From positions 1,200,001-1,232,000 of the forward strand of contig NC_008340.1 in NCBI RefSeq assembly GCF_000014785.1: a stretch of 32,000 nt of DNA, read 5' to 3'. The DNA is from Alkalilimnicola ehrlichii MLHE-1 (GTDB lineage Bacteria; Pseudomonadota; Gammaproteobacteria; Nitrococcales; Halorhodospiraceae). Positions 1-24,724 of this stretch are shown here, one piece after another; the stretch's first letter is position 1, and each line of letters opens with the position of its first letter. A program made the translations under genes and the position numbers. Below the pieces are notes generated by a model, which ran no database searches, was not told the origin of the DNA, and saw nothing but the letters and a program-made list of their open reading frames with translations.

Positions 1-3000
1 AGGCGCTGGTGCCGGAGGGGCTGGAAGAGGTCGCCGAGTCGGCCATCGACAGCGGACTGGAGGCCGTCGACGACGAGCTCGACAACCAGGATCTGCCGGA
101 CTTCGGGCTTGGGCTCGGTCTGGTGGACGCCTCGGCCATCGTCACCCTGGAGGACGGTGCGGAACTGGACGCGGGCGGGAACGTGAACATCCATGCCGAG
201 GCGCAGCGCACCGCCCGCGCCGAGGCGCATGCCGACGGCGACGGCCTCGGTGGCGCCTTCGCCCTGGCCTCGATCAGCGGGCAGACCGCGGTCACCGTGG
301 AAGAGGGCGCGAGCATTGTGGCCGGCGGTGACATCGACCTGCGCGCGGCCAGTCACAATGAATTGGTGGCCGAGGCCGTCACCGAGGTGGGCGACGGTTT
401 TGACGTCGGCCTGGGCGGCAGTGTGGCCCTGGGCTTCCTACAGTCGGAGCCGGAGGATGGCGGCACCACCGTCCAGGTGCAGGAGGGGGCGACCCTCGCC
501 GCCGGGGGCGATCTCGGCCTGTCGGCGTTCACGGAACACGATGTCACCGTCGACGCCACCACCACGCTCGGCAGCGGGGGCGAGGCGGCTTTTGGCGCCA
601 CGGTGGCCTACCTGGGTCTGGACTGGACCACCCGCACGCTGCTCACCGGCGGGGCGGTCGCCGACGACACCGTTGAACCCCCCGTGGGCATCGTCGCCGG
701 CGGTGACCTGCGGATGGTGGCGCGCACCGACCAGGCGATCCACACCGGGGCCTCGGTGGAGACCACCGGCGACATCAGTGTGGGGCTGGCGGCGGCGGTG
801 GCCGAGTTGAACAACACCACCCGCGTGGTCCTGGACGGTACGGTGCGGGCGGGCGGGGACGCGACCCTGCTGGCGGAATCCATCACCCGGGCGCAGCACA
901 CCGTGGCCACCACCCGGGCCGCGGAGGACGCTGACAATAACGGCGGTAATGGCAACGACGGACCGGACGAGGCCGCCGACGATCAAGGCACCTCCGACTA
1001 CGTGGCCGGTCTGGTCGGTGACGTGGATACCGGCGAGCCGGAGGAGACCCCGGGTGCCGGTGGCAATGGCGGCCTGGCCCTGGATATCGGGGCGGCGGTG
1101 GCCTACACCGATGCCCGGGACAGCGCCAGCACCACCCTCGGAGGCAATACCCAGCTGTTGCCACCCGCCGGCCCGCTGGGACCGGGTGGCCAGGTGGCCA
1201 TCGTCTCCCGCCGGCAGTTGGACAATCTCTCCACCCGCGCCCGCTCCGGCACCGAGGCCACCGGCCCGGACGGTGACGACGGGGCCAACAGCATCAACGC
1301 GGCGGTCAGTTACGCCCGGCTTGACCAGATCGCCCGTACCGAGATCGCCGACGGTGCCCGCATCGAGGCCGGGCGCATCGGCGTTGGCGCCGAGGTGGAT
1401 CTGCCCGCACGGGTGGCGTGGGGTGACGAGGACAACGAGGACGGGCCGGGCGGGCTGGACGACATTGCGGGCGCTGACAGCGATGATCTGGACGACTGGT
1501 TGACCAGCGAGGCCAGCACGTCGTCGGAGACCGGCGGCACGGTGAATATCGCCGGGGCGGTGAACCTGCTGGACCTGACCGCCACTGCCGAGGCGCTGGT
1601 GGGCACTGGTGACGATCCCACCGATGTGACCACCCTGCACGCGGTGGGTGATGGCGGTGACTGGGAAACCGAGCTGGGCGGTGACACCACCTGGCACTGG
1701 GACGATGCCGTTGCCGTGGCGGCCCGCAGCCGGGTGGAGACCGTGGACGTGGCGGGGCAGGCGGCGGCCGCCGGCACCGTGGGTGTTGGTGGCGGCGTCA
1801 ACTGGCACCTGCGGGAGAGCACCGCCCGGGCGCGCCTGGCCGGCAGCGCGGATATCAGCGCCGACACCGGCGGCGTGTCGGTGTCCGCCGATCGTCGGGA
1901 CAGGGCCATCGTGCTCACCCCGATAGCCGGAGAGTCTGATGGTGGTGCCGTTGGCCTGGGGGCGTCGGTGGCCTATGCCCGTATCGACGGGACCAGCCAG
2001 GCGCAGCTCGACGAGGGCGCCATGGTCGCCGCCGGCGGTGCCCTGGCGGTCACCGCTGGCGGCGACCTGCATGCCGAGATCCTGACCGCCAGCAAAACCA
2101 GCGGCGACGCCACCGCCGGGATCGCCGGCACGGTGGCCTTCGCTGACATCTCCCTGGATACCACCGCCGCAGTCCACGGCCAGCCCGTGGACAATGCCCT
2201 GGAGGTGGGCGACCTGTACCTCCACGCCCTCGACCTGCAGGACTACCAGGTGCAGGCCTCGGCGGAGGCCCAGGGCGATGTCGCCATCGGCCTGGCCGGC
2301 GCGGTACTGGATACCGAGGCCGGCACCCGGGCCCTGCTGTACCGGGATGTCACCACCGACGGCGACGTGGTGCTGATCGCCGACTCCGAGACCACCGGGC
2401 GCGGCGTGGCCGCGAGCACCCGGGCCGAAACCGGGGAGGCGGGTGACAACGGCAACGGAGAGAACAATACCGGCGACGATCGCGACCTCAACACCGTCGA
2501 CTTTGTCCAGCAGCGGGGCGAGCGCGGCAACGAGGGGGTCGATGACGGCCTGCAGGACGTGGCCGGGGACCCCGGTGCCGGCCAGTCGGAAGAGGCCGGC
2601 TTCGACGTCAATGTCGGCGCGGCGGTCGCGTTTACCGGTGCCGACGACTCGGCCGGGGCGCACATCGGCGAGGCGGTGACCATCAGCGGCCCGGGCGGGG
2701 GTGCCGCGGGTGACGTGGCCGTGCTCGCGCGGCGCGCCGAGAGCGGCTATCGCGGGCGCGCCCAGACCGAGGTGGAGACGGCCCCCGAGGATGACGGCGT
2801 CGGTGTCGGGGTCGGCGCCGCACTCACCCTGACCTTCATGGACAACAGCGCGGAGGCACTTATCGGCGCCTCGGCGGTGGTTGACGCCCATCGCGTCGGG
2901 GTGGCCGCGGACGTCATCCTGCCGGACCACTTTGAGGGGCCTGCCTGGGACGGTCTCGAGACCCTCCGCGACCTGGCTCAGGACGACGACGATGAGCTGA

Positions 3001-6000
3001 CCTACGACGAGGCGGAGTCCAATCTGCTGGACATGGCCGACGGTTGGCTCACCACCTATGCCAACGCCGCGGCCGAATCGGAGGACGGGGTCTTCGACGG
3101 CGCCGCCGCCGTCAACTTCGCCCGCTACAACGTCAACGCCGACGCCTGGATCGGTGAGGGCGCCGAGGTGACGGCCGGCGGCACGGCTGGCGATACCGGC
3201 TGGAGCACCGAGCTGCGCCCGGCGCAGGACAATGGCGATCCGGCCCTGAGCCGTCGGTGGAACGAGGCGATCACCGTCAGCGCCGGGGCCGATGTCCGCA
3301 CCATCGACGTCGCCGGCAACGTCGGTGGCCTGCTCACCGCCGGCGTCGCCGGGGACGCCACCGTGGGCATCGGCGCCGGTTTCGCCTGGTTGGAGCGCGG
3401 CGGCCACGTCAGCGCCGGTATCGCCGACCACGCGGTGGTGAGCGCCAGCCACGGGCAGGGCACCATTGGCGTGCACGCCGAGCGCTTCGACCAGTCCATC
3501 GGCATTGCACCCAGTTCCGGCCACGGGGCCAGCTTCGCCGGCAACGGTACGGTGGTGGTCAACCGCCTGGACACCGATACCGTGGCCGCGGTGAGCCACG
3601 CGGCGGCGGTCGACGCCGCGGCACTGACCGTCAGCGCCGGCCGCGATCTGCGCTGGTGGTCGGTGGCCGGTTCCATCACCCTGGCCGAAAGTGTCGCTGT
3701 CGGCGTCGGCATCTCTGTCAACGAACTGCGGACCGATACCCGGGCCGTGATCGGCGATGTGGCCGGTCTCCGCCCGGCGATGGCCGGCGGCGGGGACGTC
3801 ACCGAGCTGGATGACACCGAACAGGGGATTACCGCCGACCAGGTCACCGTGGCCGCACGCAGCGATGGCCTGGTGGGCAGTGCCTCCATCGCCGGCGGCG
3901 CCGCCGGTGAGACCGGCGAGCCGCCGGCCACCGACAACTGGACCGACTCCGGGCTGACCAATGACGTGATTGGTGTCACCTCCGATCGCACCGAAGGGGC
4001 GGAAGCCCCCGAGGATGAGACCATCGCCGAGGCCGTGCAGAGCGGGACCGGCGAGCCAGCCGGGGCGCTGGATGAGCAGGAGGCGTCGGCGGACGACCTG
4101 GACGAGGACGGCGACCTTGCCAACCCGGACCCCACCCAGCCCGACCTGGAGACCTTCCCCGACGAGGGTGCGGACATCCCGGACGCGGGCGCCGATGCCG
4201 ACAGCGAGGAGACGGACCTGGGCGTCGCCGTGGCGGGGTCGGCCTCGGTCAACCTCAGCAGTCTGAACACCACGGCGCTCATCGAGGACGTGTCGCTGGC
4301 GGCGCGCGATGCCGACACCACCGACGTTACCGCCAGCGCGGTGGCCGCCGTTGACACCATCGCCGTCAGCGGCTCCGGGGCCCTGGTGCTGGGCGGTAAC
4401 AGCAGCGACCCTCAGGTGGCCATCGCCGGCACCGTGGGCGTCAATCTGCTCGGCGACCACACCCGGGCGCGGCTGGTGGACACCCGGATCGAGCAACCCG
4501 GCCAGGTGACGGTGGAGGCCCTTCGCGACGGTGAGTTGATCAGCGTCGGCATGGGGTTGGCGATCACCGCCAGTGGCTCCACCAAGGCCGCCGCCGTGGC
4601 CGGTTCCGTCTCCCTCAGCGACATCAGTAATGAGACCGCGGCCACCATCGAGGGCGGCACCATCGGCGACCCCGGGAGCGATCCCGAACCCGACGACGGG
4701 AGCGGGGTGCAGGTGCTGGCCTATGACCGCTCCAGCATCGGGACCGGTGGGGGTTCGCTGTTCGGCGGCAAGGGCGGTGGCTTCGGCGCCGCGGTGACTC
4801 TGGCCCAGGTGCGTAACACCATCGATGCGGGCATTCTCGGTACGCGCATCACCGACGTGGCCGAGGTGACCGTGGATGCCCTCAGCGCCACCCGCATCAT
4901 CAGTGCCGGCGCGGTGCTGGGTTACGGCGGAAAAGGGGCGGTGGGCGGCGCGGTGGTGTTGAACCGCATCGGCAACACCACCAAGGCCGCGATCGCCGAC
5001 CGGGACGACGGCGACGACGTGGAACGCGCGGAGATCACCGCCAATGAGCGGGTGCGGGTGCGGGCGCGCAGCGCCAGTGACGATGAACGCGTGGCGCTGG
5101 ACGACCGCATCGATGCCGCCGGTGGCGGTCACGTTTACAACTTCAGTGGTGAGGGCACCGCGCTGGCCGAGCCCGAGGCCGAAGGTGATCGCGACTGGGG
5201 CGATGACAGCTACGAAACCGGCGGCGATGAGTTCGCCGGCGAGGGCGGCGACCAGGCGGAGATCGACAGCGGCTACGATGACGCCGCCGAGGATGCCCGC
5301 TTCGACGGTGGCCCGCTGGAGGGTGATGCCATTGTCGGTGTGGCCGGCAGCATCAGCGCGAGCGGCAAGGCCAGCATCGGGCTGGCCTTCAGTGGCAACC
5401 AGATCGACAACGACTACATCGCCGAGGTGCGCGGCGCCCGGATCGACGGCGTGGATGGCGAGCTGAGCGTCGATGCCGCCGACCGGTCGCGGGTCATCGG
5501 CCTGGGGGTGGGCGGCGGCGCCTCGGGCAAGGTGGCCATCGCGGGCTCCGGCGCCGCCAATCTGATCGGTGGCGAGGCGCGTGCCACCATCGGCGGCAGC
5601 CGTGCGCAGGCGGACGACGGCCCGGTCCACCTGGCGGAGATCGACGCCGGGGCGGTGAATCTCGGCGCCGATCGCGGTAGCCGCATCGATGCCCTGGCCG
5701 GCAACGTCGCCTTCTCCGGCAAGGCCGGCATCGGTGCCGCCGTGGCCTACAACGCCATCGACACCGCGGTGGCGGCCGAGATCAACCACGCCGATCTCGC
5801 GCTGTCCGGGGGCGACCTGAGCATCGACGCCGGCAGCTCTTCCGACATCTACGGGGTGGCCGTCTCCGGCGGGGGCGGTGGCAAGGTGGCGCTCAACGGC
5901 AGTGCCATCATCAACTTCATCGATCTCGATGTCAGCGCCGGGCTGGGCAGCAGCCGGGTGCGCGACACGGGTGCCGTGCGAATCACCGCCGGCGACCATG

Positions 6001-9000
6001 GCGCCGGTGGCCAGGCCGCCATCTGGAGCCTGGCGGGAGCCATCAACGGTGCCGGCAAGGTCGCGCTGGGTGCGGCGGTGGCCTACAACGAGATCGAATC
6101 CCGCTTTGCCGCGGACATCACCGGCGCCGACATCGAAGCGCTGGGCCCGGTGGATGTGACCGCAGAGGTCAGCGGTGACATCAACACCCTGGGCGCCGCC
6201 GGCGGAGGCGCCGGCAAGGTGGCCCTGGGGGGCGCCGCCACCGTGAGCCGGATCGACAACACCGTCACCGCAAGCCTGACCGGGAGCCGGCTTTACGCCC
6301 CGGCGGCGCTGGTCACCGTGGCGGCGTCGCAGGATAGCCGTATCCGCGCCCTGGGCGCTGCCATTCAGGGTGGCGGCAAGGTGGGCGGGGGCGCGGCAGT
6401 GACCGTTAACCAGATCGGCTCCGGGGTGACTGCCGAGGTGACCGGCGGTGCGCCCGGTCTGCCGGCCGCCATCGATGATCCCGCCGGCGGCGGCGACGCC
6501 GAGGCCCACTACCATCTCGGTCACCTGGTGGTGGATGCCCGCTCGGACAACGAGATTCAGACCATCGCCGCCGGTGCCGCCGCCGGGGGTGTCGGCGGCG
6601 TGGCCGGTTCGGTCTCCACCAACCTGTTCGGCAACCGGACCAAGGCGCGGATCGCCGACGGTGCCGACGTGCTGGCCGAGGGCCACGTGCTGGTGGACGC
6701 CGCCAGCAGCGACAACGTGGCGTTGGTGGCCGGCAGCCTCGGCTTCGGCGGCAAGGCCTTTGGCGCTGCGGGCACCGTCGCGGTCAATATCGTGGAGAGC
6801 GAGACCCACGCCTGGATCGGCGGTGAGGACCCCGGCGACGCCACCGTGGTGGTCGCCCGGGCGCAACAGCCGGGCACGGTCAGTGGCCGTGACCACCGGT
6901 TGCACGCCATCCCCGGGCTGGTGGACAAGTCCGACGGCGAGAACACGTTTGATGACGAGGACGGTGTCGAGATCTACGACAGCGAGGTCGACGACGCCGC
7001 CGAGGACCGCGACGGCACCGGGGGCGGTAGCACCGGAGGCTTCTCGGTGGAGGACGAGGCGGGCGATTACCTGCTCAGCCGCCTGGTCCGGGATGATGAT
7101 CGCGGGGTGGACGGCGTCCGGGTGAGTGCCCGCTCCGATCAGACCACCAGCGCCGCCCTGGCCACCGCCGGCATCTCCGCCAACGTGGTGAAGGGCGGGG
7201 TGGGGTTGGCCGCCACCGCGTTGGTCAACCGCATCGCCGGCGAGACCACCGCCGGTATCCGCAACAGCGAGGTCAGCTCGGAGACCGATGTGGCGGTCTC
7301 TGCCGGAGGGCATGTGCATACCCGCGGCCTGGTCATCGGCGCTGCCCTGGGCAGTGTCGGTGCCTCCGGTGCGGCGGTGGTGGATGTGGTCACCCGCCGG
7401 ACCCGCGCCGGGATCGACGACGCCACGGTGACCGCCGGGGGGCGGATCGACGTGGACGCCGCCGGTTCTCAGAGCACCAGCGGCCTGGCCATCGGGGCCT
7501 CCGGCGGCACCTACGCCAGCCTGGCCGGCGGCGGGGTGGTCAGCCGGCTGGGGGCGCAGACCCTGGCGGAGGTCACCGGCAGTCGCCTGGAGGCGGGCGA
7601 CGTGGGCGTGCAGGCGGACAGCGACACCGGGGTGACGATGCTCACCGGCACCGTCTCGGTGGGTGCCGCGGCCGCCGCCGGCTCCTTCAACGTGGCGGTG
7701 GTGGACGCCGTCACCGTGGCCCGCATCGCCGACAGCGATCAGGACCGTTCCCGGCTCTCGGTGGAGGGCGAGGTGGACGTGGCTGCGGAGTCGTTGAACC
7801 GCTTCGGAACCATTGCCGCCAGCGGTGCCGCCGGCGGCACGGCCATTGCCGGCACCCTGGGCCTGAGCCTGCAACAGAGCGTCACCCAGGCCCGGATCGA
7901 GGGCGCGGCCATCGGCCAGGGGGACGACGATGTCCCCGCGCAGGTTAACGTCCGCGCCCGCGACCACCTGGAGGTGGGGGCCTTTGCCGGTGGTGCCTCC
8001 CTGGGCATGGGGATGGGCCTGGGGGCCGCCGCCAATGTCTTCAGCGGCCAGGCCTCCGTCCTCGCCGAGGTCAGAGACGGCGCGGCGATCGAGGCCGGCG
8101 CGGTGTCGGTCTCCGCCGAGCGCAGTGCCGAGCTGAGCCTGTATACCGCCACCCTGGGTGCCGGCCAGACCGGCTTCAGCGCCGGGGTCGGCGTGATCCT
8201 CCTGGGGGTGGGCGCCGGCGAGGTGACGCCCACCCGGGGCGAGGATGATATCGCCGAAGACGACGTGGAGGGCGGTCTCGAGCGGGAGCTCAATGGCAAC
8301 GGCGGCGGCACTCTGGACACCGCCAATACCTTCGCCAACTTCAGTTTCGAGGGGGATCCGGACAATGACGCCAACACCGAGGACGATGTCGGCGGCAGCC
8401 TCAGCGACGATCAGCGGGACAGCCTGGAGAGCGACCTCGAGTTCAACCTGACCGAGTCGGTGATCGATGGCGATGACCACCAGACGGTGGCCCGCATCGA
8501 TGCCAGCGATCTCCGCGCCGACCGGGTGGACGTGACCGCCGATGACCGGGTGGCCACCCGCAACTACGTGGGCTCCGGTGCGTTGGGGGGTGTCGGCTTC
8601 GGCGCCGCGGTGGGCTTCACCCGGGTGGGTAACGGGGTGGTGGCCGAAATCGGGGGTGACGGCACCCTGGATGTCGGCGAGCTCACCATCCGAGCCGGTC
8701 ACGACGACCTTGGTGGTGGCACTGCGGCGGAGACCCGCGCCTGGGCCGGGGCCGCAGGCGGCATCGGCCTGGCCGCCGCCTATGCCGATGCCGATGTGAC
8801 CACCGGGGTGCGTGCCACCCTGGGCCCGGTGAACCTCCAGCGCGACGCGGCCGACGACGCCGGCGTCGAGCTCACCATCGACGCCTTCGACCACGGCGGG
8901 ACCTATGCCGAGACCATCGGCGTGGCCGCGGGCTTCGTGGCCGGTGTGGGGGCGGCGATCTCCCGCGCGGCGCGAACCTCCACGGTAATCGCCGAGGTGG

Positions 9001-12000
9001 CCGACGACACCGCCGTCGGCAGTGACGACGAGGATTCGGCGGACTTCGATCTCTCCCTCAGCGCCGTCTCCGACGGTGGCGTGGCGGTCGATGGCATCGC
9101 CCTCGGGGCCGGCGTGGTGGGCGGCGGCGCCGCCGCCCTGGCGCTGGGCGAGGAGCGCTCGACGGTGCAGGCGCGCGTGGGCAACGGCGCTGACCTGCGG
9201 CTGGGCGACGGCGCGCTGACCCTGGATGCCCTGGCCCGGCCGGATGTGACCGCGGACGGGGTCGGGGTGGCGGCAGCGGTGACCGGGGCCATCGCTGCGG
9301 CGGTTTCCCGCGCCTACTCTTCGGCCACCGTTGAAGCGGCCGTCGGTGACTTAGACGGCCCCGGTGGCGCCGCGGTGCAGGCGCGCGCGGTGGATGTCCG
9401 GGCACGCAGCCTGCCGGTGGGCAGCTACGGTGCCGAGGCCGAGGCCATCGCGGGGAGTATCGCCAAGGGCGTGGCGGTCTCCGGGTCCTTCGCCTTCGCC
9501 ACCGACACCGCCACCGTAAACGCCGGCCTGGGGCCGGGGGCGGACCTGACCCTGGGCGGCGACGGGCTGTCGGTGTGGGCCGAGGCCGATCCCGCGGCCC
9601 GGGCCCGGACCCACGCCCGCACCTTCGCCGGCGGGGTCGCCTTCGGTGCCAACCTCTCGCAGGCCGCGTCCAATGCCGAGGTGGCAGCGGTGGTGGGTGA
9701 CCAGGCCTCGGTGCGGCTGGCCGACGGGGTGGACGAGGCCGATTTCACCATCCGCGCCATCGCCAATGACGACGGCAGTCGTACCGCCTACGCCACCGGC
9801 GCGGTGAGCGGTGGCGCGCTGCTGGTGTCCGCCAACGGCGGCTATGCCCGGGCCTATGAGCAGACGGCGGTGGACGCCCGCATCGGCACCGGCGCGACCC
9901 TGGACGCCGGTGCCGGTGAGGTGCGGCTGGGCGCCGACGCCACGCCCCACGCCCGGGCCGTGCTCGCCAGCCAGTCTTACGGTGGCGCGTTGGCCATCGG
10001 GGCCGCCATTACCGACGCCCGGGTGGCGGCCGACGTGACCGCTGCCATCGGTGACGGAACCGCCATTCTGGGCGGCGGTGACTTGACGGTGCACGCCCAC
10101 GTCGCCCGCCCGGCGGGTGCCGACAGTGCCTTTGCCCGCTCCGAGGCCAGCAGCGGCGCGCTGGCATCGGCCAATGCGGCCCTGGCGGAGGCCCGCAATC
10201 ACGCCCGGTCGCGGGCGCTGACCGGGGCCGGTGTCACCCTGCCCGGTGGCGTGGTGAGCCTGCGGGCGGAGAACCACAGCCGGCAGCACGGCCACAGTGC
10301 GTCGGAATCCTACGGCGCCTTCGCGGCCGGGATGACCGTGACCCGGGTGGAGTCCGACACCCTGACCCACGCCATCCTCGGCACCGACAACCAGGCCAGC
10401 GACAACGATGATCGGCCGGACGTGGTGGATGTCACCACCAACGCCAGCAGCCACGACCACGGCTTTGGCCAGACTGCCACCGGGGGCGCCATCGACGGGG
10501 CCGCGGCGGAGGTGCATACCTTCAGCACCGCCGATAACCGGGCCCAGGTGCTGGGCCACCACAGCGACCCGCTGCAAGTGGGTGTGCTGAATGTCCGGGC
10601 GCTGCAGGACACCCGCTTCTCCGGCGTGGTGGACACCAGCCGCGCGTCGGTGGCCGGTGCCAGTGGTGCCCGCCTGTACCATAACGCCAACCGGGTCACG
10701 GGCATCGTCAACGTCGACGAGGAGCGGGAGGCCTTCTACGGGGAAACCAGTGTAGTGGAGGCCGGGATCGGCGACCACGCCGATATCCGCGCCCTCTACG
10801 TGGACGTGATCGCCGAGCAGGCGGTGGAGCGCGTCGCCGACGCCGGTAACGACATCCGGGTTGCGGGCGGCGGGGTGCTGGGTGCCTCCGCCGGCCGCGG
10901 CGCCACGTATATTGAGACGATCACCCGGGCGGGTATCGGCACCGGGGCCACGGTCAACGTGGAGCTGGACCTGCTGGTCCGCGCCATCGAGGCGATCACC
11001 GCCGAACAGGTCGCCCGTCTGAACACCGGCAACGCCATCGATATCGCCCGGGCCGAGTCGGTGATGCACACCGATCACCAGAACGACGTGATCATCGGCG
11101 GAAACGCCAACATCACCGCCGGTGGCGATGTGGTGCTCTCCAACGCCACCGAGTTGGACCTGGTGGCTCATACCCGCGCCCGCACCTCCGGGGTGGCCAG
11201 TTTCGCCCGCGGCAACAGCGAGGCGGAGGCCGATGTGCGTGAGGGGATCACCGTGGGCAACGGCGCGCGGCTGGCCTCCGCCGGCAACGTGGTCATGCGC
11301 ACCGGCCTGGGCGACGGCGGTTTGCCGGCTCGCAAGGGCGTGGAGGCCGATACCTACCTGTACAACAAGGGGGCCCTGCCGCTGGAGAACGACCCTCGCG
11401 TGCATGCGGACCTGGTGGTGGACAGCCGTATCGACGTGGCCGACAACGCCGTGGTCGAGGCCGGACAGGACGCCTATCTGATCGCGCCCGTGGGTTTCCG
11501 GTACCGGGCCCGGGGCGAGGGCGAGGGCCAGGACATCTACCGGCGCGCCGCCGAGTCCATCGCCAACTTCTTCCGCCGGCTGGTCCGTGCCGATGAGGTC
11601 TCGCTGGCGAAGGAGGTGCGTAGCGAGGACCTGGTCCGGGGTAGCACCATCACCATCGACGGCCAGGTGGTGGGCGCCGGCGGCATGCACCAATACCTGT
11701 GGGTGCGCCAGGGCGACGATGACGACGAACGCATCCTGGCCAGCCCGGGTGTCGGCTACTTCTTCGAGGAACGCGACGTGCGCGGTGACCTGGAGGCGCT
11801 GGTCGGTGCCTACCGGGATCTGCTGGGGGAATACGTGGAGCCGGATCCGGACGATCCGGAGGGCTCCGGTCTGCTGTTCTGGCGCGCCGCCGCCCAGATC
11901 GAGACCCTCGCCGGCCGCCTGGCTGCCCTGGGGGATGAGGATGACGGGCCCTATGACGGCGGCCGGGCGGTGCCCTTCATCGAGGTGGAGGACATCACCG

Positions 12001-15000
12001 CCACCGGTGGTGATGTGGTCGTCCGGGCGGATGCGGTGGAGGGTGGTGGCGAGGTCCGGTTGGGCCCGGACCTGGAGGCCATCTTCAGCGACTTCGCCGG
12101 TGGGGATCTCAACCAGGTGCCGGCCGAGTTCCTGGAGCCGGGCGGGCCGAGCATTCGCATCCTGGTGGAGTCCAACGAGTGGCTGCAGGTCAACGACCTG
12201 ATCATCGACGACCGCCGTGACGGCAGCATCACCATCGCCCAGGAGAGCGGCGCCTTCGGCGGTATCGCCGTGCCGACCCGGGTCTCCGGGGTGGGTGAAC
12301 TGCCAAGCGGGCTTCGCTACGACACCGGCGGGGTGGAGGCCACCCCGGAGATCCGCGTGGTGCACCAGTTCGAGGTCCCGCCCCAGGAGGACCACCTCTA
12401 CACCAACCCGGAGATCCGCCTGGGCCACGAGCCGGACCCCGCCGACCAACTGGAAGGCGAGTCGGTGACCGCCCGCATCATCAACCCGCGCGGTCTGGTG
12501 CAGGTGGGCAACCAGGCCGGCAGCATTATCTCCTCGGCCAGCATCGAAGCCGCCGCGGTGGAGATCGTCGCCGGTGGTAATTTCGTGCAGAACTGGATTC
12601 CCGGGTTCTTCCACGCCGGCGGGCAGCCCGAGGCCGCCGGCGAGGCCAGCCGCATCCTGGCCGGGGGCGACATCTACATCAGCGCCGAGCACATCAATGT
12701 CAATGGCCTGATCCAGAGCGGGTTCGACGAGTGGACGCTGGATTTCTCCTCCGACCTGCTGGGGAATGCCGGGACCACCCTCGATTTCGACGCCGACAAG
12801 GGCCACAGCCTGGGTGATTACCTGGAGTGGTACGGCAAGGGTTATCGTGCCACCAAGGAGGTGGAGGAGGCCCCGATACCCTTCTGGGCGCAGTTCTTGC
12901 CGCCCTCCATTTGGCACCTGCTGGGCTATGGCTTCGCCCCCGACGTCGACGCGGCGGATGTGCCGGACGATTTCCGCACCGCCTACAACGCCGGCCGTAG
13001 CGGTGAGCAGTTCCTGCAGCTGACCGGCGGCGAGGGCTTCGACGTGGAACTCGGCACCGTGGCCAGCTTCTACGATGCCGAGGCCGACCGCATCGACATC
13101 CAGCGCGCCGCCGTGGGCGGTGGCTACATCTTCCTGGCGGGCGACGTGGTGAGCACCGGCGGAGGCGAGATCCGGGCCTTGTCGGGTTTCGGTGAGATCC
13201 GGGTGGATACCACCGGCGGCGGGGAGGACGCCTTCCGTACTCACCAGGATGTGGTGCTCTATGACCTGGACGCCGGGACCCAACCCCATGCGCCCAGTTT
13301 CGACCTGCCCGAGGAGGAGCTGATTTCTGCGGAGGGCCTAGCGCCCTGCCGGCCCTGCGTGAGGATCTGGGATACCGCCAAGCGTGACGGCGAGGGCAAC
13401 CCCATCGAGACCGTCTTCCAGCACGACTGGAACCCGGACCCAGCGGCCCCGGACGGGAGCTTCGGCACCATCGCCAAGACCGTCTCCCGGCTCGACCGCG
13501 AGCAGCGTGACGATGACTTCTTCCTGCTGCGCACCGTGGTCGACGAGGATGACCCCTTCTATGGCCAGGAGCAGGACGCAGGCTTCGGCCCCCGTCCGGG
13601 GGCCACCGCGCAGTACCTGCCCCGCGAAGGGATGCGCTACCTCTACGGCGACAGCGTGGATGAAGACTCCGGGCGGCTGCTGTTCCCGGACGACGATGTG
13701 CCGTCAGGGCCGGGCTATCAGTCCATGCGGGCGGACCGGGCTATCGACGTCGGGTTCATCGGCAACCCGGTGGGTACCATCGACATCAAGAGCATCGGTG
13801 ACGTGATCATCGACGGCAGTGTGCGCAACCCCCAGGGGCTGACCACGGTGGAGACCGTCGGTAGCATCCGGGAGCCGGAGCAGGGCGGGCTGTTGCAGGG
13901 TCGCCAGCTCACTCTGGAGGCCGGTGGCGCCGTCGGCAGTGAGGGCGCCCCGCTGCGGGTGATCGTGGGTGACGGCGAGGTCACGCCGGACGATGCCTGG
14001 CTGGTGGCCCTGGCCGGGGATGGCGGGGTCTTCCTGGACGGCCTGCGCGGCGATCTGCCGGTGCGCGAGGTGGGGACGCTCAGCGGCCATACCGTGGACA
14101 TCGACGCGGCCCGTCACTTGATCGACCGCGGCACCGCCCCCGACCGGCCCACGGTCTACGGCGCCCGGGTGCATCTGCGTGCCCGGGACGGCTCTATCGG
14201 TGGCAGGGAGCAGGGCGAATTCGTGCTGCCGCTGACCATCGCCTCCGGGGTCGGGGTTGTGGTGGACGATCCGGACGCGCTGCCGGATTGGCTGAACCTT
14301 CCGCTGGGCAGCGCCAACGTAACCGCCCGCGCCGCCGGCCATGTCCTGCTCGCGGAAGATGCCCGCGGACTGGCCAGTGCCGGTGTGCCCGTCGACGGTG
14401 ACATTCACGTGGAGGCGCTCCGCGCCGCCGAAGGCGATGTCCGGCTCTTTATCGCCGACGGCAAGCTGATCAGCGCCATCGACGCCGAGCTCGATACCGA
14501 CCGCATGGTCCGCCTGGGCGAGATGTGGGACTCGCTGGGGATGCTCGACGACGGCTCGCCCAACAGCGGCGTAGCCCGCTTTGTCGAGGATCAGGTGGAG
14601 GCCTTCGAGGCCTCGGTGGAGAGCCGCTACCGTGACTGGTGGGAGCTGGACCGCCTGGCCGGGGAGGACGGCGGCTTCGACCTGGCCCCGGATCGGGCCC
14701 GCATTTACGCCCACCGGGCCGGCGTCGACGGCTCACCGGAGGCGTGGGACGAGACGGCGGACCCGCAGGGCGTGGCCGACAACACCGCCGCGGTCAATGC
14801 CTGGCTGGAGGGCCGTTACGGCGCGCTCAGCGATGAATTGGGCGAACTGCTGCTGGAGGGCAACGGCGACCAGTCCCTGGCGGACCTGGGTACGGTGGTC
14901 GAGGAACCGCTGGCCGAGGATCCGGCCACCGGGGAGATGCTGTTCTATGAACGGGTCGAGTTCGATTACCAGGCGCCGGACAGTGTCCGTGACCAGCTCG

Positions 15001-17165: not shown

Positions 17166-18847
17166 AGCGGTGGGGCTCGGAAGAATCGCGGCGGGCGCCG
17201 CTGCTGGCGGTGGTCGTTTGCCTTCCCCTGCTGACGGCGGGTGCGGTCCATGCGCAGACACCGGGCGCCCAGCCCGAACCCGGGCCGGGCGTCGATCCGG
17301 CGCTCCAGTTGCGGGAGTTGTTGCGCGAGCGTGAGCGCCTGGAGGAGCGCGGGCCACGGCCGGAGGAACCCGAGCTGGATATCCCGGAGCTCGTCCTGCC
17401 CGACCTGGAGGATGAGACGGTGGAGTTCCTCCTCAGAGAGATCCGCTTCTCCCCTACGGAGCTGCTGGACGAGCAGTGGCTCACCGAGCTGGCGGAGGAA
17501 TACATCGGGGAAGTGGTCAGTTTCGGTCAGGTGAACGAGCTGGTGGAACGCATCAACAGCGCCTATGCCAAACAGGGCGATGTCACTGCCCGGGCCTTCG
17601 TGCCGCCACAGCAGATCGTCGACGGCCGGCTGCAGATCCTGCTGGTGGAGGCCCGGATCGGTAGCGTGGCCGTGGAGGGGGCCGAGCACACCGAACCGCG
17701 GTACATCCGCGGCCGTATCCCGCTGGAGGAGGGCGAGGTGCTGCGGGTGCCCGATCTGCGCGCCTCGGTGCGTGAATTCAACCGTCGTGAGGCGCTGCAG
17801 GCCGGCGTGGCGCTGCGTCCGGGCGAGGCGTTCGGTGAAAGCGATGTGGTCCTGCAGATGCTTGAACCCCCGCGGCTGCGCTACCAGCTCTTTGCCGACA
17901 ACGCCGGCGCACGCAGTACCGGTGAAGAGCGGATCGGCGGCATGGCCAGTTGGTATTCGCCCTTCGGCCGGGCCGACCGGTTCACCGCCTTTCTGGTGGG
18001 AAGTAGCGGGGCCACCGCCCTCGACTTGAGCTACGCCACCCCTGTCGGCCATCGCGGGGCGGCCCTCACCGCCCGCCTCGCCTACAACGAGATCGAGATC
18101 GTCCGTGGTCCGCTGCGCGATCTGGACATAGAGGGTGAATCGTTGCGTGGTTCCCTGCGCTATACCCATCCCCTGGCATGGAGCGAGCGCCGCACCTGGG
18201 ATGCCGTCGGCAGCCTGGGCTATGTCCGCTCCAAGACCGAACTGGACGGGGTTACTTTCGCCGACAACGAGGTGACGCGGGTGGACGCAGGCGTGCGCCT
18301 GCGCCAGTACGGCCAACCCGGTCCCCACACCCACTTCCTCGAGGTCGAGCAACGCCTGGCCCACGCCCACTTCCGGGAGAGCGCCGGGGAACTGGATGAG
18401 ACCGATGACAGCCTGCTCTGGGATGGCCGCCTGCTCTGGGAGCAGCGCCTGCCCCGGGCCTTTTATACCCTGTCGCGGGCCGAGTGGCAGTATGCCGACA
18501 GCCCGGAGGCGGTGCTCTCACCGCAGCTCTTCCAGGTGGGCGGCGCTTTCGACGTGCGCGGCTACCCGCAAGGGGCCACCGCGGGTGAGAGCGGCTATTA
18601 CCTCAGCCTGGAGTTGCGCTACGCCGGCTTTGCCGCCGTGGAGCCCTTCGTCTTCGTTGATCACGGCGGGGTGCGCCAGGAGGACCAGGATAACGAGCGC
18701 CTGACGAGCTGGGGCGCCGGTGCCTTCCTGGACCTCGGTCGCGGCTTCTCCGGCAGCCTGACGGTAGGCGTGCCCGCCAGCGACGTGTTGCCGGACCAGG
18801 ACGACTACCGGATCCATTTCCGGATCGCCTGGCAGGGCCAGCGCTGA
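17162..18847 (+). CDS. Two-partner secretion outer-membrane transporter, ShlB/FhaC/HecB (TpsB, Omp85 superfamily)
   Basis: ATG 17162 overlaps the giant-ORF stop (ATGA), with GAGGAG 11 nt upstream. There is a signal peptide, MKRWGSEESRRAPLLAVVVCLPLLTAGAVHA/QT. A POTRA-like region follows (VEFLLREIRFSPTELL...INSAYAKQGDVTARAFVPPQQIVDGRLQILLVEARIGSVAVEG). It also carries an FADNAGARSTGEER motif and the TpsB/Omp85 loop-6 motif FDVRGY (nt 18554-18565). At 561 aa it is a typical size for this family. Confidence 0.9.
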   Translation: MKRWGSEESRRAPLLAVVVCLPLLTAGAVHAQTPGAQPEPGPGVDPALQLRELLRERERLEERGPRPEEPELDIPELVLPDLEDETVEFLLREIRFSPTELLDEQWLTELAEEYIGEVVSFGQVNELVERINSAYAKQGDVTARAFVPPQQIVDGRLQILLVEARIGSVAVEGAEHTEPRYIRGRIPLEEGEVLRVPDLRASVREFNRREALQAGVALRPGEAFGESDVVLQMLEPPRLRYQLFADNAGARSTGEERIGGMASWYSPFGRADRFTAFLVGSSGATALDLSYATPVGHRGAALTARLAYNEIEIVRGPLRDLDIEGESLRGSLRYTHPLAWSERRTWDAVGSLGYVRSKTELDGVTFADNEVTRVDAGVRLRQYGQPGPHTHFLEVEQRLAHAHFRESAGELDETDDSLLWDGRLLWEQRLPRAFYTLSRAEWQYADSPEAVLSPQLFQVGGAFDVRGYPQGATAGESGYYLSLELRYAGFAAVEPFVFVDHGGVRQEDQDNERLTSWGAGAFLDLGRGFSGSLTVGVPASDVLPDQDDYRIHFRIAWQGQR

Positions 18848-18944
18848 GTGCTGCATGACCGCGGCCGGCACCGTGCCCCCAGCTGGATCCCACCCGCAGG
18901 CTATGCTGTAAGGTAGTACAGGCCCACCGCAGGGAGAAGCGGCC

Positions 18945-21900
18945 ATGGCGATTCACCTGCACTTCGTCGGCCGCGAGGTCGAGTCGGACGATCCGGATGC
19001 CGCGGTCTTCGAGGTGGGCTCGCCCTCCCGGAGCTACGATCTCAGTTGGGTCCGCAGGGACGTCGAATGCGACGCCACTGCGCTGATCGAGATAGAGGAT
19101 GACGACGAGTGCATCCTCTGGACCACGGCGGAAGATCTGGCCGAGGACGAGGCCGCCCGCCGGGGGCACCTGCGCGGAGAGGGCGACGCCGATATTGCGC
19201 TGGATGCATTGCTGGCGGGCGCGTCCACGAGCTCGCGGGGCGTGCTGCGCCGGTTTGGCCGGGTGGTCCTGCGGATCTTCGGGCGCCGGGTCGCCGACGA
19301 ATTTGCCGGCAGGTCCGCCAAGGCCATCGCCGAGTACTGGGAGGGCCAGGTCACACCGGGCCACGGGCTGTACCGCTGCGACCGCCCCGAGGGCCCGGAC
19401 GCCGTCGACGAGGCGCAACGTGTGCGCCAGGGCGAGGGCCTGCCCGGTGACGGGCCACTGCTGCTGCTCCTCCACGGCACGGCGTCCAGTATCGCGGGCA
19501 GTTTCTCCAAGCTCGGTGGGTCCCCCAGAGGTGATGAGCCCACCGTATGGGCCACGCTACAGGCCCATTACCGGGCACCGGACGGCCGCTCGCGCATCTG
19601 CGCCTTCCAGCACCCCACCCTCAGCGCCAGTCCCATCGACAATGCCCTGCAGTTGGTTGACGACCTGCCCCGGGGGGCTGAACTCCACCTGGTCACCCAC
19701 TCCCGTGGCGGGTTGATCGGCGATCTGCTCTGCCTTGCCGGGCAGGATCCGTCTGCGCTCCGGGGTGGCCTGGAGCAGCAGTACCGGCGCGACGAGCAGT
19801 GGCTGGCGGCCACCGGTCGTGATCTGGACGATCCCGGGATCGCTGCCCTCGCGGAACAGGACCGGGCCGACCGGGAGGCGCTGCTGCAACTGCTGGAACG
19901 GCTCCGGGACAAAGGGATCCGGGTGCTCCGCTACGTGCGGGTGGCCTGCCCGGCGGCCGGCACCTCTTTGGCCTCCGAGCGCCTGGACCGACTGCTGAGC
20001 CTGCTGGGCAACCTCATCCGGTTGCTGCCGCCGGCCAACGGGCCCTTCTTCAACGGCGTGATCCGGCCGATGATCCGGGCCCTGGTCGCGCAGCGATTCA
20101 GCCCGGACCGGTTGCCGGGGCTTGAGGCGATGCTGCCCCACGGGCCCTTGGTGCGCTGGCTGAACCTGGCGGCCCCCGAGGCGGATGCCGAGCTGGCGGT
20201 GATCGCCGGCGACGCCGAGGGCAGCGGGTTGATCCGCCGGCTGGGGGTGCTGTTGCTGGACCGGCTGATCTTTCCCGGCCGGCACGATCTGGTGGTGGAC
20301 ACCCGCTCCATGTACGAAGGCCTGCGGCGCCGGCAAGGGGTGTGGCAATACTTCCAGAGCCGGCCCGACATCTCCCACTTCAACTATTTCGACAACCCTG
20401 ACTCACAGCGGGCGCTGGTCGGTTGGCTGCTGGAGACCGACGACCGGGCGCTGTTCCGAAGCCGCGATGCCGAGGCACCCTCCCTGGCGGCCGAGACCTT
20501 CAGCGGTGTGCTGGGCGTGAGCCGGGGTGACCCCCACCGGCCGCTGCTCTTCCTGCTCCCGGGGATCATGGGCTCGCAACTGAGGGCGCGGGAAACCCGC
20601 ATCTGGATGGTCCGCCGGCAGATCCTGCTGGGCCGCATCACCCGGCTGGCCTACGGCCGCAGTGGGGTGGAGACCGATGGGGTCTTCAGTCGGTATTACC
20701 AGCCGCTGGCCGAGTATCTGGCCGAGACCCATGAGGTGCATGTCTTCCCCTACGACTGGCGGCTCTCCATCGACGACGCGGCCCGGCGCCTGGCCGCAGA
20801 GGTGCGCCGGGCCCGCGGGAGCGGGGGGCGCCCGGTGCGGTTCGTGGCCCACTCCATGGGCGGGTTGGTGACCCGGGCCATGATGGCCAGCGACCCGACC
20901 TTGTGGGCGGAGATCTCGGAGCAGCCGGGCTCGCGGCTGCTGATGCTGGGCACGCCGAACCGCGGTTCGTTTGCCATCGTCGAGGCACTCCTCGGGCACG
21001 ACCGGCTGGTGCGAATGCTGGCGCTGCTGGATCTGCCGAACAGCCTGAACCGGATCCTCGGCCTTTTGGCCGAGTACCCGGGGGTCATGGATCTGCTGCC
21101 CCAGGACGGCGAACTGGACCTCTACGACGTGGCCACCTGGAGCCGCCTGACCCACCACAACGGCCGCTTCGGGCACGTGCCCGAAGCAGAGCGGTTGAGG
21201 GGTGCGCGGCTGCGCCGCGACCGGCTGCCGGCGCGGGTCTCGGGGAATGACCCCATCGTCTACGTGGCCGGTCAGGCGCCGCTGACGCCGGCCGGTATCC
21301 GTATGGACGGCAGCGGCGACGGCCGGCTGCGCTTTGTCGGGACCACCGAGGGGGATGGCCGGGTCACCCACGCCGCCGGCGAGTTGCCGGGGGTGCCGCG
21401 TTGGTTCTGCGACGCGGTGCACGGCGATCTCCCCGCCACCCGCTCAGCCTTCCCCGCCTATCTCGACCTGCTGGAGACCGGGCGGACAGACCGTTTGCCC
21501 ACGGAACCGCTCAGCCGCCGGCGTGGCCTGGGGGCAAGGGAGTTCCTCTACGACCCTTCGCCGGCCACCCAGCCGGATGAGGCGACACTGATCGCGGAGG
21601 CCCTGGGGGCCTCCGGGGACGCAGACGAGGAGGCGGGCCGCCCCGGCCTGACGGTCTCGCTGGTATATGCCGATCTGGCCCAGGCGCGCCACCCGGTGCT
21701 CTGCGGGCATGCCGTGGGCGATGTGATCTCCGGGGCCGAGGCGGCCCTAGACGAGGCCCTGGGCGGGGCACTGTCCCGGCGCTACCAACTGGACCGCATC
21801 CCGGGCCGGGTCGGCAGCACGGCGGTGATTCTGCCCGACGGATCGCAGCGCTCGCCGGTGCCCGGCGCCGTGGTGATGGGCCTCGGTGAGCTGGGCGAGC

Positions 21901-23327
21901 TCAGCGCCAACGTGATCGCCGAGGCCAGCTACGCCGCCTGCCTGGACTATCTGTTGGCGGTGGCCAGCCCGAGCGACGGCGCCTGGGTCGGGCTCAGCGC
22001 GATCCTGGTGGGCGGCAATAGCCCGGCCGCCCTGCACGAGGCGGATATCATTCGATCGATCATCCAGGGCGTGGTCCGGGCCAACCGCGCCATGGTCGAG
22101 CAGGCGAATGGCACCGGTGTGGCGATCACGGAGTTGGAGATCCTGGAGCACGACGGCCTTCGTTTCCAGGAGGCCTGCCAGTTCCTGCGCGCCGATACCG
22201 GCCAACTCAGCGAGGAGCTGGGCACGGACCTCGTGCTGCGCCGGGAGGAAAGGCATCCCGAGCCGCGGGTGGAGACCGGCAGCCTGGCAGCGCGGCGGGC
22301 GACCCGCCGTTGGCGCCGGCTGATCGTCACCGAGCAGGAGCGGCCCCCGCTGTTGAACTACGAACTGCTGGGCCTGCGTGCGCGAATCCCCGGTCGGGCG
22401 GTGGACTTCGATCCGGTCACGGTGGCGCGGCTACTGGCGGAGGCCATGAGCGATCCGCGCTTCGACCGCGAGACCGCCAATGCCCTCTACCATCTGCTGA
22501 TCCCCAACCACCTGGGCGATCAGATCGATCATTTCGATGCCCTGATGCTGATCGTGGACGAGCGGACCGCGCGCCTGCCCTTCGAGATGCTGAGCAACAA
22601 CCGCCGCCCCGGGGCGCGGCCCTGGGCGGTGCGCCAGGCCATGGTGCGCCAGTTCCGGACGCCCGAGTTCCGTCAGACCCTGAAGCCGGTGCGGGCGCAG
22701 AGCGCGCTGGTCCTGGGTGACCCGGTCACCCCCTTGCCGGAGTTGCCCGGCGCCCGGGCGGAGGCGCAGGCCGTGGCCACCGCGCTGCTGGGCCAGGGCT
22801 ACGATGTGCGGCTTCTGTTACAGCCGCGCGGGGCCGATGTGCTGCGTGCGCTGTTCGCCAAGCCCTGGCGGATACTGCATGTGGCCGGGCACGGCATCCA
22901 CGAGGCCCACGGGGAGGCCCCCGGGGCGTTGCGCAACGGCATCCTGCTGGACGACGGCGCCCTGCTGGGCCGCCCGCAGATCAGCGAGCTGCCGGAGACC
23001 CCGGACTTCGTGTTCCTGAACTGTTGCCACCTGGGTCGCATGGTCCAGCTCACCGCAGAGCAGCGGGTACGGTTTCAGCACTTCGCCGGTACCATCGCCC
23101 GCAGCTTCATCAACATCGGCGTGCGCGGCCTGGTGGTCGGGGGCTGGGAGGTCAACGACCGGGCCGCCCAGCGCTTCGCGGAGGTCTTCTACCAGGCCCT
23201 GCTCAACGGCGAAGCATTGGGCCTGGCCGTGTTGCGTGCCCGCGCGGCCTGCTGGGCTCAGTTTCCCGATTACAACACCTGGGGGGCCTACCAGTGCTAC
23301 GGGGACCCGGACCTGCGGCTGGTGTGA
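18945..23327 (+). CDS. Multidomain protein: N-terminal alpha/beta-hydrolase module + LCAT/PGAP1-like lipase module + unknown middle region + C-terminal CHAT (caspase-like Cys protease) domain
   Basis: ATG 18945 is preceded by AGGGAGAAG (18931-18939). The frame stays open for 1,460 aa to TGA 23325-23327.
- Module 1: LLLLLHGTASS ... HLVTHSRGGLIGD (Ser253, nt 19701-19703).
- Module 2: LLFLLPGIMGSQL, FPYDWRLS (nt 20751-20762), RFVAHSMGGLVTR (Ser637, nt 20853-20855), TEGDGRVTH (Asp804), AVHGDLP (His826).
- CHAT domain: WRILHVAGHG (His1316, nt 22890-22892) and FVFLNCCHLG (Cys1360/1361, nt 23022-23027), then GLVVGGWEVND ... GAYQCYGDPDLRLV.
- There is no N-terminal signal peptide (MAIHLHFVGREVESDD). 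Confidence 0.9.
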   Translation: MAIHLHFVGREVESDDPDAAVFEVGSPSRSYDLSWVRRDVECDATALIEIEDDDECILWTTAEDLAEDEAARRGHLRGEGDADIALDALLAGASTSSRGVLRRFGRVVLRIFGRRVADEFAGRSAKAIAEYWEGQVTPGHGLYRCDRPEGPDAVDEAQRVRQGEGLPGDGPLLLLLHGTASSIAGSFSKLGGSPRGDEPTVWATLQAHYRAPDGRSRICAFQHPTLSASPIDNALQLVDDLPRGAELHLVTHSRGGLIGDLLCLAGQDPSALRGGLEQQYRRDEQWLAATGRDLDDPGIAALAEQDRADREALLQLLERLRDKGIRVLRYVRVACPAAGTSLASERLDRLLSLLGNLIRLLPPANGPFFNGVIRPMIRALVAQRFSPDRLPGLEAMLPHGPLVRWLNLAAPEADAELAVIAGDAEGSGLIRRLGVLLLDRLIFPGRHDLVVDTRSMYEGLRRRQGVWQYFQSRPDISHFNYFDNPDSQRALVGWLLETDDRALFRSRDAEAPSLAAETFSGVLGVSRGDPHRPLLFLLPGIMGSQLRARETRIWMVRRQILLGRITRLAYGRSGVETDGVFSRYYQPLAEYLAETHEVHVFPYDWRLSIDDAARRLAAEVRRARGSGGRPVRFVAHSMGGLVTRAMMASDPTLWAEISEQPGSRLLMLGTPNRGSFAIVEALLGHDRLVRMLALLDLPNSLNRILGLLAEYPGVMDLLPQDGELDLYDVATWSRLTHHNGRFGHVPEAERLRGARLRRDRLPARVSGNDPIVYVAGQAPLTPAGIRMDGSGDGRLRFVGTTEGDGRVTHAAGELPGVPRWFCDAVHGDLPATRSAFPAYLDLLETGRTDRLPTEPLSRRRGLGAREFLYDPSPATQPDEATLIAEALGASGDADEEAGRPGLTVSLVYADLAQARHPVLCGHAVGDVISGAEAALDEALGGALSRRYQLDRIPGRVGSTAVILPDGSQRSPVPGAVVMGLGELGELSANVIAEASYAACLDYLLAVASPSDGAWVGLSAILVGGNSPAALHEADIIRSIIQGVVRANRAMVEQANGTGVAITELEILEHDGLRFQEACQFLRADTGQLSEELGTDLVLRREERHPEPRVETGSLAARRATRRWRRLIVTEQERPPLLNYELLGLRARIPGRAVDFDPVTVARLLAEAMSDPRFDRETANALYHLLIPNHLGDQIDHFDALMLIVDERTARLPFEMLSNNRRPGARPWAVRQAMVRQFRTPEFRQTLKPVRAQSALVLGDPVTPLPELPGARAEAQAVATALLGQGYDVRLLLQPRGADVLRALFAKPWRILHVAGHGIHEAHGEAPGALRNGILLDDGALLGRPQISELPETPDFVFLNCCHLGRMVQLTAEQRVRFQHFAGTIARSFINIGVRGLVVGGWEVNDRAAQRFAEVFYQALLNGEALGLAVLRARAACWAQFPDYNTWGAYQCYGDPDLRLV

Positions 23328-23350
23328 GGCGGACCGGGCCCGAGGGGGCT

Positions 23351-23366
23351 GGCGAGCGTACTCGCC
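23351..23366. terminator. Weak hairpin in the 41-bp gap between convergent genes (possible bidirectional terminator)
   Basis: GGCGAG-CGTA-CTCGCC forms a 6-bp stem with a 4-nt loop between the stop at 23327 (+) and the stop at 23369 (-). There is no U-tract, so support is weak. Confidence 0.2.
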
Positions 23367-23368
23367 GC

Positions 23369-24148: not shown

Positions 24149-24331
24149 GACAGGTCTTCCGTTGCGTAGTATCAGGCTAGCAGCGGTGGCAGGGAGCTGA
24201 CTCTTTAGGTAGTTCCCTCTAGGTAGAGAGACGAATTACCGCGCAGGGCCCTTCGGCATAACCTGACAGTGAATTCGGCGGGAGCACAACCGCCGGACCC
24301 GAGACCCAACTCAATGCCTGAGGTGACCATC

Positions 24332-24724
24332 ATGAAGACCTTTGTTATCAAGACTGCGACGGCCCTGACGCTCGGTGCCGGCCTGGCCGTTTCCGGCCTG
24401 GCCGCGGCCGAGAACTGGACCACCCACGTGGGCCAGGTGCGGGCGGATCTCCCCACCCAGTCGATTGCTTCCAGCGGTGTGGGCAGCGGGGAGAACTACC
24501 AGCACTTCGTCGGCCATGTGCGGGCGAACGGCCCCCGTGAACTGAGCCCGGGCGAGGTCCTGGTCAGCGAGAACTACGTGCCTCACATCGAAGCGGTGCG
24601 GAATAAGGCGCGGTTCGACCAGGTGGCTGCGGACGAGCTGCGTGGCAAGCGCGAACAGGCGCAACGGGATACCCGCCACGGGATTCAAAGGCCCATCGGC
24701 GGCGGCCGGGAGGGATTCCGCTGA
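24332..24724 (+). CDS. Small secreted protein of unknown function with three ENY/W-x3-V/I-x2-VR repeats
   Basis: ATG 24332 is preceded by AGGTGA (24321-26) and gives the signal peptide MKTFVIKTATALTLGAGLAVSGLAAA/EN. The track ORF starts earlier (24269), but the upstream extension lacks an RBS and would bury the signal peptide. Three repeats start at 24410, 24491 and 24569: ENWTTHVGQVRAD, ENYQHFVGHVRAN, ENYVPHIEAVRNK. A terminator follows the gene. Confidence 0.7.
   Translation: MKTFVIKTATALTLGAGLAVSGLAAAENWTTHVGQVRADLPTQSIASSGVGSGENYQHFVGHVRANGPRELSPGEVLVSENYVPHIEAVRNKARFDQVAADELRGKREQAQRDTRHGIQRPIGGGREGFR

Follow-up and report, generated by a model that had tools for sequence, protein, structure and literature searches.

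A 32,000-nt stretch of the Alkalilimnicola ehrlichii chromosome (hereafter the window; positions are 1-based and on the forward strand) encodes a giant exoprotein, its outer-membrane transporter TpsB and, directly downstream on the same strand, a large protein in which two lipase-type alpha/beta-hydrolase domains are combined with a CHAT protease domain. We consider it likely that this locus represents a known kind of two-partner secretion (TPS) pair, the third gene of which, sapC, has been replaced in one lineage by an unrelated and widely mobile gene of the conflict type. Judging from sequence and gene order, the CHAT/lipase gene is probably not part of the secretion machinery. The preliminary description of this DNA had proposed that the three genes might form a three-component TPS variant; if so, the otherwise very simple two-partner route would gain a cytoplasmic protease/lipase. 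The evidence argues against this: TpsB is encoded near none of the 83 other CHAT/lipase family loci, while sapC occupies the third position in all eight of the related TPS loci. Both components of the locus belong to known kinds, and the CHAT/lipase family is widespread and uncharacterised.

Homologues of the CHAT/lipase protein number more than 1,100, with nearly all of the 120 listed aligning along 88-100% of the length at 34-40% amino acid identity. When a single genome per species was scanned, the family appeared in at least 595 species from many phyla, including Mycobacterium and Chloroflexia, bacteria in which outer-membrane transporters of the TpsB type would not be expected. The 83 loci of this family examined outside the Alkalilimnicola lineage were covered for up to 10 kb per side, giving 1.13 Mb of flanking sequence; the upstream flank was 2 kb or longer in 69 of them, and in 47 both flanks reached 5 kb or more. 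No TpsB was detected in any of the 83, either by phmmer with the window TpsB or with a seven-sequence TpsB profile (E <= 1). A small gene coding for a caspase-like protein (Peptidase_C14, ~260-280 amino acids (aa)) is instead located directly upstream and on the same strand in 31 of the 83 loci (L006 9144-9935; L007 9066-9911; L095 5062-5907; and 28 more among L008-L087), and other loci of the family carry TIR or TPR-S genes. Thirteen loci also share a downstream gene of ~190 aa with a weak Peptidase_M15_3 match. Most homologues are ~1,800 aa long (1,750-1,900) and terminate in a C-terminal TPR-S domain (PF20308), for which no literature was found. A few members lack this domain (e.g. P0009, P0011 and P0080), and at least one TPR-S-less homologue retains its caspase gene. 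The A. ehrlichii protein ends six residues after the CHAT domain with no PF20308 match, and caspase-like, TIR and TPR-S neighbour genes were not detected in the 32-kb window at E <= 0.1. From their neighbourhoods and domains, the caspase-like gene and the CHAT/lipase family may together constitute an undescribed defence system.

The composition of the third slot is markedly different in the relatives of the secretion pair. The gene order giant open reading frame (ORF)-tpsB-sapC is found in all eight related loci outside the Alkalilimnicola lineage for which downstream sequence is available, across TpsB identities of 34% to 63%, and the CHAT gene is present in none of the eight. The sapC gene (PF07277, ~250 aa) directly follows tpsB in L088 (27511-28266, minus strand), L090 (28734-29480), L092 (11724-12488), L093 (11699-12502), L096 (4513-5313), L097 (9291-10073), L098 (11358-12230) and L099 (2869-3801). 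TpsB has seven database relatives only, and a metagenome scan with a TpsB alignment yielded five loci, while the same scan with a single TpsB sequence yielded none. The giant-protein family is very rare, with 28 matches, three of them giant proteins, in an exhaustive search of 1.84 billion representative proteins. No remnant of sapC could be identified in the window or in the sister-taxon contig L091 by tblastn with four SapC proteins, the window matches being at chance level only. The literature search on the SapC family returned only papers on saposins. Since sapC follows tpsB in eight of eight loci, SapC is a better candidate for a true TPS accessory factor than the CHAT protein. The occurrence of sapC after tpsB, and the Macro-CHAT-lipase family with its caspase partner, are more promising leads than the three-component claim.

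The preliminary description had named orthologues that never accompany TPS genes as grounds for refuting its proposal, and this is essentially what is seen: the tpsB-CHAT junction is confined to A. ehrlichii (two strains or more) and one sister taxon, in which the CHAT gene is interrupted by stops. This sister taxon is represented by two contigs from different samples, L089 and L091, and is colinear with the window from the giant gene through the last codons of the CHAT gene. The CHAT gene of L091 (11766-16130) is a single frame with two in-frame stops, at aa 580 and 654. On this contig tpsB and the giant gene are both intact, which tentatively suggests that the CHAT gene is dispensable. An in-frame stop also occurs in the giant gene of the other sample (L089 ~8946-8948), and the two sister-taxon stops that were read are both TAG. 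As these are automatic assemblies, one of which also has a giant-gene stop, the stops may be recent variants or errors. Directly downstream, an 887-bp segment (23322-24208) containing a metallophosphoesterase gene is found in A. ehrlichii only and has no counterpart in L091, and another A. ehrlichii strain carries two insertion sequence (IS; DDE_Tnp_1) insertions just downstream of the CHAT gene region. The presence or absence of the metallophosphoesterase gene between the taxa and the nearby IS elements suggest that this spot is prone to insertions and deletions, and the CHAT/lipase gene probably entered the sapC slot here by a lineage-specific insertion or replacement. A recent horizontal arrival was rejected in view of the GC content and third-codon-position GC content (GC3) of the CHAT gene, which match those of its neighbours, so that any acquisition would be old. 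Mobile-element borders were also sought around the gene and dismissed, there being no convincing flanking repeats and no tRNA gene.

The product of the third gene, an exact match of which is encoded in A. ehrlichii GCA_049262545.1 (record CP183314.1), begins with an N-terminal region, followed by two alpha/beta-hydrolase domains, then a Macro-fold domain and, last, a CHAT protease domain. The first hydrolase domain (19461-20384, plus strand; DUF7379, Pfam PF24096, 113 bits) contains an HSRGG nucleophile motif at aa 252-256 (S253), with the invariant D448 and H478 as candidate triad partners. The second (20547-21434, plus strand) resembles LCAT and lysosomal phospholipase A2 (Pfam LCAT, E = 5e-8), and comparison of the family profile with the PDB likewise matched group XV phospholipase A2 (4x90, E = 1.4e-6) and LCAT. 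It carries an HSMGG motif at aa 636-640, and the invariant D804 and H826 are its candidate triad partners. In the CHAT domain (22470-23306, plus strand; aa 1176-1454; Pfam CHAT, E = 7.7e-30) the His/Cys dyad H1316 and C1361 is intact and falls in invariant columns of the family alignment, in which all catalytic residues of the three centres are kept in the A. ehrlichii protein. The previously unannotated region of aa 885-1175 was modelled with AlphaFold (mean pLDDT 72, most core blocks >80), and Foldseek matched the model to PDB entry 3jru (E = 7e-8), TTHA0132, macroH2A1.1, YmdB, MacroD2 and viral macro domains, with E-values from 7e-8 to 1e-5 and target TM-scores of 0.6-0.7; 3jru is also a weak match by sequence. 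By this model, aa ~902-1101 (21648-22247, plus strand) are predicted to adopt a Macro fold, like that of the M17 aminopeptidase N-domain and the ADP-ribose-binding macrodomains. Family members share this conserved stretch, including motifs such as GHYxGD and GLGxxGEL, and the domain is a possible ligand-sensing module. The protein aligns with the family from end to end, its N-terminus matching that of the homologues and showing no obvious signal peptide, and the large hydrolase/CHAT product is apparently cytoplasmic, as had been suggested. No PADLOC-DB 2.0 model matched the window protein, and the homologue P0110 gave only a weak match to the PADLOC SAVED_CHAT model (E = 7e-4). No literature linking CHAT to TPS or to haemagglutinin-type exoproteins was found, including on the cyanobacterial fusions of the two that the preliminary description mentions.

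The absence of the TPR-S domain and of caspase or TIR neighbours, unlike in most family members, together with the sister-taxon stops at aa 580 and 654, could alternatively mark the A. ehrlichii gene as a functionless leftover of a conflict system in the course of decay, its sensor domain and partner having been lost. The 4.4-kb CHAT ORF is, however, intact in at least two A. ehrlichii strains, the copies of which are 99% identical, and its three catalytic centres are conserved. The ratio of nonsynonymous to synonymous divergence (dN/dS, Nei-Gojobori) between A. ehrlichii and the sister taxon is 0.17 for the CHAT/lipase gene, compared to 0.11 for the giant gene and 0.10 for tpsB. As synonymous divergence (dS) between the two taxa is ~0.55-0.68 (~0.64 for the CHAT gene), this value indicates that the gene was under purifying selection for most of the divergence time. 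The possibility that the sister-taxon stops are variants or errors also speaks against decay, and loss of TPR-S alone is not decay, given that another TPR-S-less family member keeps its caspase partner. We therefore regard a decaying remnant as doubtful. The A. ehrlichii copy is without TPR-S and a caspase partner, and has kept its catalytic residues under purifying selection.

The arrangement around the spacer was also considered in terms of transcription. The preliminary layout of giant ORF, tpsB and CHAT/lipase gene on one strand with a convergent gene beyond them was confirmed by ORF, overlap and domain checks, and its ATGA at 17162-17165 could be read directly, with the tpsB ATG at 17162-17164 overlapping the TGA of the giant ORF at 17163-17165. 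The 97-bp gap (18848-18944), the good Shine-Dalgarno sequence and the absence of a terminator all hold on re-examination. The Shine-Dalgarno sequence (AGGGAGAAG) is located at 18931-18939, 8 nt before the CHAT-gene ATG at 18945, and a consensus scan of 18848-18944 identified no terminator-like site. Because no terminator was found, the CHAT gene could be co-transcribed with the secretion pair. Same-strand adjacency without a terminator is common in bacteria, and is no evidence of a functional link. A strict consensus scan found no sigma-70 site anywhere in 16500-25000. An 11-nt block, CTATGCTGTAA (18901-18911), is nonetheless identical in A. ehrlichii and the sister taxon amid diverged flanking sequence, and this block, of modest significance, and AGGGAGAAG are the only conserved elements of the spacer. 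The block holds a -10-like TATGCT 34-39 nt upstream of the start codon, which weakly hints at a promoter of the CHAT gene's own, although the strict scan did not call it. Transcripts of the CHAT gene may arise by read-through out of the TPS genes, from a promoter of the gene itself, or in both ways. No structured RNA or riboswitch was found in the spacer, with folding no better than that of shuffled sequence (z = +1.2) and no match in Rfam.

Several observations weigh against the replacement of sapC by an unrelated conflict-type gene. The junction is common to two taxa separated by dS ~0.6, and the CHAT gene is under purifying selection; it takes the precise place of the lost sapC, in the same orientation, and is not preceded by a terminator. 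Loss of the presumed sensor domain and the partner gene could represent a change of job rather than hitch-hiking. The proposed conflict-system mechanism, moreover, derives from domains and neighbours only, with no corresponding PADLOC model. These points would be accommodated if the sensor-less CHAT/lipase protein had been co-opted as a true third TPS component that functionally replaces SapC, for example as a cytoplasmic factor that processes, acylates or quality-checks the giant pre-protein, or as a fail-safe on blocked export. The good Shine-Dalgarno sequence, the persistence of the junction in two taxa at a CHAT-gene dN/dS of 0.17 and the retention of every catalytic residue would all be compatible with this, and the loss of TPR-S and of the caspase partner would fit a new mode of regulation. 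Co-option nevertheless appears improbable in view of the absence of TpsB from the 83 family loci and of the CHAT gene from all eight related TPS loci, and of the sister-taxon contig on which the CHAT gene has two in-frame stops beside an intact tpsB and giant gene. The protein is also apparently cytoplasmic, has no TPS domain and no SapC similarity detectable by tblastn, and the conserved -10-like block hints at a promoter of its own. It is also improbable that, in the Alkalilimnicola lineage, a conflict-system effector stripped of its TPR-S sensor and caspase partner was captured into the third TPS slot and took over from SapC, possibly to process, acylate or quality-check the 6,040-aa pre-protein, or to trigger self-destruction when export jams. 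If true, this would make it an immune-type protease/lipase domesticated by a secretion system.

Domain content identifies the first two genes as a two-partner secretion pair of the LktA/FxxPxG subtype. The tpsB gene (17162-18847, plus strand) encodes a ShlB/FhaC-type outer-membrane transporter of 561 aa, 100% identical to an annotated protein of A. ehrlichii MLHE-1, with Pfam ShlB (95.5 bits, E = 5.5e-27, cutoff 22.7) and POTRA_2 (59.2 bits, E = 3.7e-16, cutoff 24) domains and an N-terminal signal peptide visible on reading (...AGAVHA/QT). The 4-bp overlap of the giant gene and tpsB is also called in L089, L091 and L092, and an overlap of 20 bp occurs in L093; the ATGA overlap is consistent with translational coupling of the two genes. 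The giant exoprotein gene, of which the 3' 17.2 kb fall within the window (1-17165, plus strand), is open from base 3 and contributes 5,720 codons without a stop between the window start and 17165. Its full called product in CP183314.1 is 6,040 aa, placing the first ~320-340 codons upstream of the window. With a pI of 4.2 the protein is very acidic, and Gly, Ala and Asp are abundant in it. Repeats of the NCBIfam family NF012206 (LktA_tand_53; cutoff 50) were identified in aa 1-2000 of the window ORF (160.6 bits, 13 stretches) and in aa 2001-4000 (145.6 bits, 7 stretches). A Pfam scan of the in-window part identified no domain. The C-terminal ~1,700 aa matched no Pfam or NCBIfam model, and a word-indexed protein search with this region was empty, with even the self-match absent.

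The region of the giant gene coding for the secretion (TPS) domain is located off-window, ~1 kb upstream of base 1, and the domain was read in relatives. The sister-taxon orthologue (L089), which shows 87-89% identity in the compared regions and remains colinear through the start of the window, contains the NF012204 adhes_FxxPxG secretion domain at its N-terminus (111 bits, cutoff 60). A 38%-identical relative, P0122, matches both NF012204 (128.6 bits) and TIGR01901 (33.2, cutoff 29.1). The Pfam TPS model falls below its threshold (cutoff 33.5) on the N-termini of the sister-taxon orthologue and P0122, with scores of 17.7 and 27.5 bits for the two. Because the N-terminal codons of the giant gene are off-window, the label tpsA is based on the in-window LktA_tand_53 repeats and the sister-taxon orthologue. 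The tpsA-tpsB pair of the preliminary description is thus borne out by the TpsB domains, the ATGA overlap and the LktA_tand_53 repeats, with the defining N-terminal domain seen in relatives only.

In terms of function, the giant exoprotein would, by analogy with its family, cross the inner membrane by the Sec pathway before being threaded through the coupled TpsB barrel, and, once exported, would make up an adhesin or surface fibre. In two of its distant relatives the giant protein ends in, or precedes, an OmpA-type peptidoglycan-binding domain (L088 ~26600-27457; L090 25699-27042), which suggests anchoring of the fibre to the cell wall. This domain is absent from the window protein and from L092. 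A contact-dependent inhibition (CDI)-type locus (cdiBAI) was ruled out: neither a VENN nor a VDNN motif occurs in the giant protein, whose C-terminus is conserved, and the downstream gene, with a product of 1,460 aa, is no small immunity gene. Compared with L092, the C-terminal 3,300 aa show 57-76% identity in each full 300-aa block, dropping in the last ~46 residues only. Given the lack of a VENN-type toxin boundary and this conservation between taxa, the giant protein is not considered a CDI toxin. Two long antisense ORFs opposite the giant gene (438-8894, minus strand, 2,818 aa; 9351-13289, minus strand, 1,312 aa) were taken as non-genes and, because of the 71% GC and 87% GC3, are read as by-products.

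The same-strand block ends at the CHAT/lipase gene (18945-23327, plus strand), and the convergent metallophosphoesterase gene (23369-24148, minus strand; Pfam Metallophos) is not a member of it. Further downstream, within 24900-27560, two genes of the diguanylate-cyclase type, SnoaL_3-GGDEF and HDOD-GGDEF, lie back to back, and the region of the latter (25998-27557) has no aligned counterpart in the sister contig.

Members of the CHAT/lipase family may, by analogy with bacterial conflict systems, function as switchable effectors. The CHAT protease would be switched on once a signal is sensed by the Macro and/or TPR-S module, and would then cleave the partner caspase and/or unleash the fused phospholipase-like domains.

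Among known secretion systems, the A. ehrlichii pair most resembles the lktBAC locus and LktA adhesins of Fusobacterium necrophorum, with which it shares a giant filamentous exoprotein carrying LktA_tand_53 repeats, an FxxPxG N-terminal secretion domain (here in the orthologue), and a POTRA_2/ShlB-type partner encoded in the same operon and followed by a third gene. It differs in gene order, which is A-B rather than B-A-C, and in its third gene, which is unrelated to lktC. The Fusobacterium leukotoxin is a protein of ~3,200 aa, and the A. ehrlichii giant protein is nearly twice its size. As A. ehrlichii, which originates from Mono Lake, is a free-living haloalkaliphile, a role as adhesin or surface fibre is likelier than one as leukotoxin. 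The FHA/FhaC and ShlA/ShlB systems likewise couple a TpsB with POTRA domains and a ShlB barrel to a very large exoprotein of the beta-helical type. Unlike in these classical TPS systems, the Pfam TPS model remains sub-threshold on the relatives of the A. ehrlichii giant protein, and unlike in cdiBAI there is no VENN-type pre-toxin motif, the C-terminus is conserved and no small immunity gene occupies the third position.

In conflict systems, an alpha/beta-hydrolase invariably accompanies domains of the caspase superfamily (Kaur, Burroughs, Iyer and Aravind, eLife 2020, PMC7159879). The CHAT family conforms to this pattern in combining a caspase-superfamily protease with alpha/beta-hydrolases and in its caspase, TIR and TPR-S neighbours. 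It departs from it in that a single protein unites the hydrolases, the Macro fold and CHAT, the family loci examined show no MoxR, vWA or STAND NTPase partner, and the window copy is without TPR-S or a partner gene. The SAVED-CHAT protease of type III-B CRISPR immunity serves to activate PCaspase, a small caspase-like protease, while in type II Thoeris the signal is received by a Macro domain. These two systems and the TPR-CHAT protease (Csx29) of type III-E resemble the CHAT family in possessing a sensing module, which in the CHAT proteases is fused to CHAT, and the caspase-like protein encoded upstream in 31 of the 83 family loci could be a CHAT substrate as PCaspase is. Unlike in SAVED-CHAT, the sensor of the CHAT family would be the Macro fold and/or TPR-S, with two lipase-type domains added, and unlike for the CRISPR-linked CHAT systems, no CRISPR or cyclase genes were seen near the family loci. 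In its layout the CHAT family resembles the CHAT-to-caspase cascades of type III-B CRISPR and Thoeris immunity, and is therefore a reasonable candidate for a new defence system.

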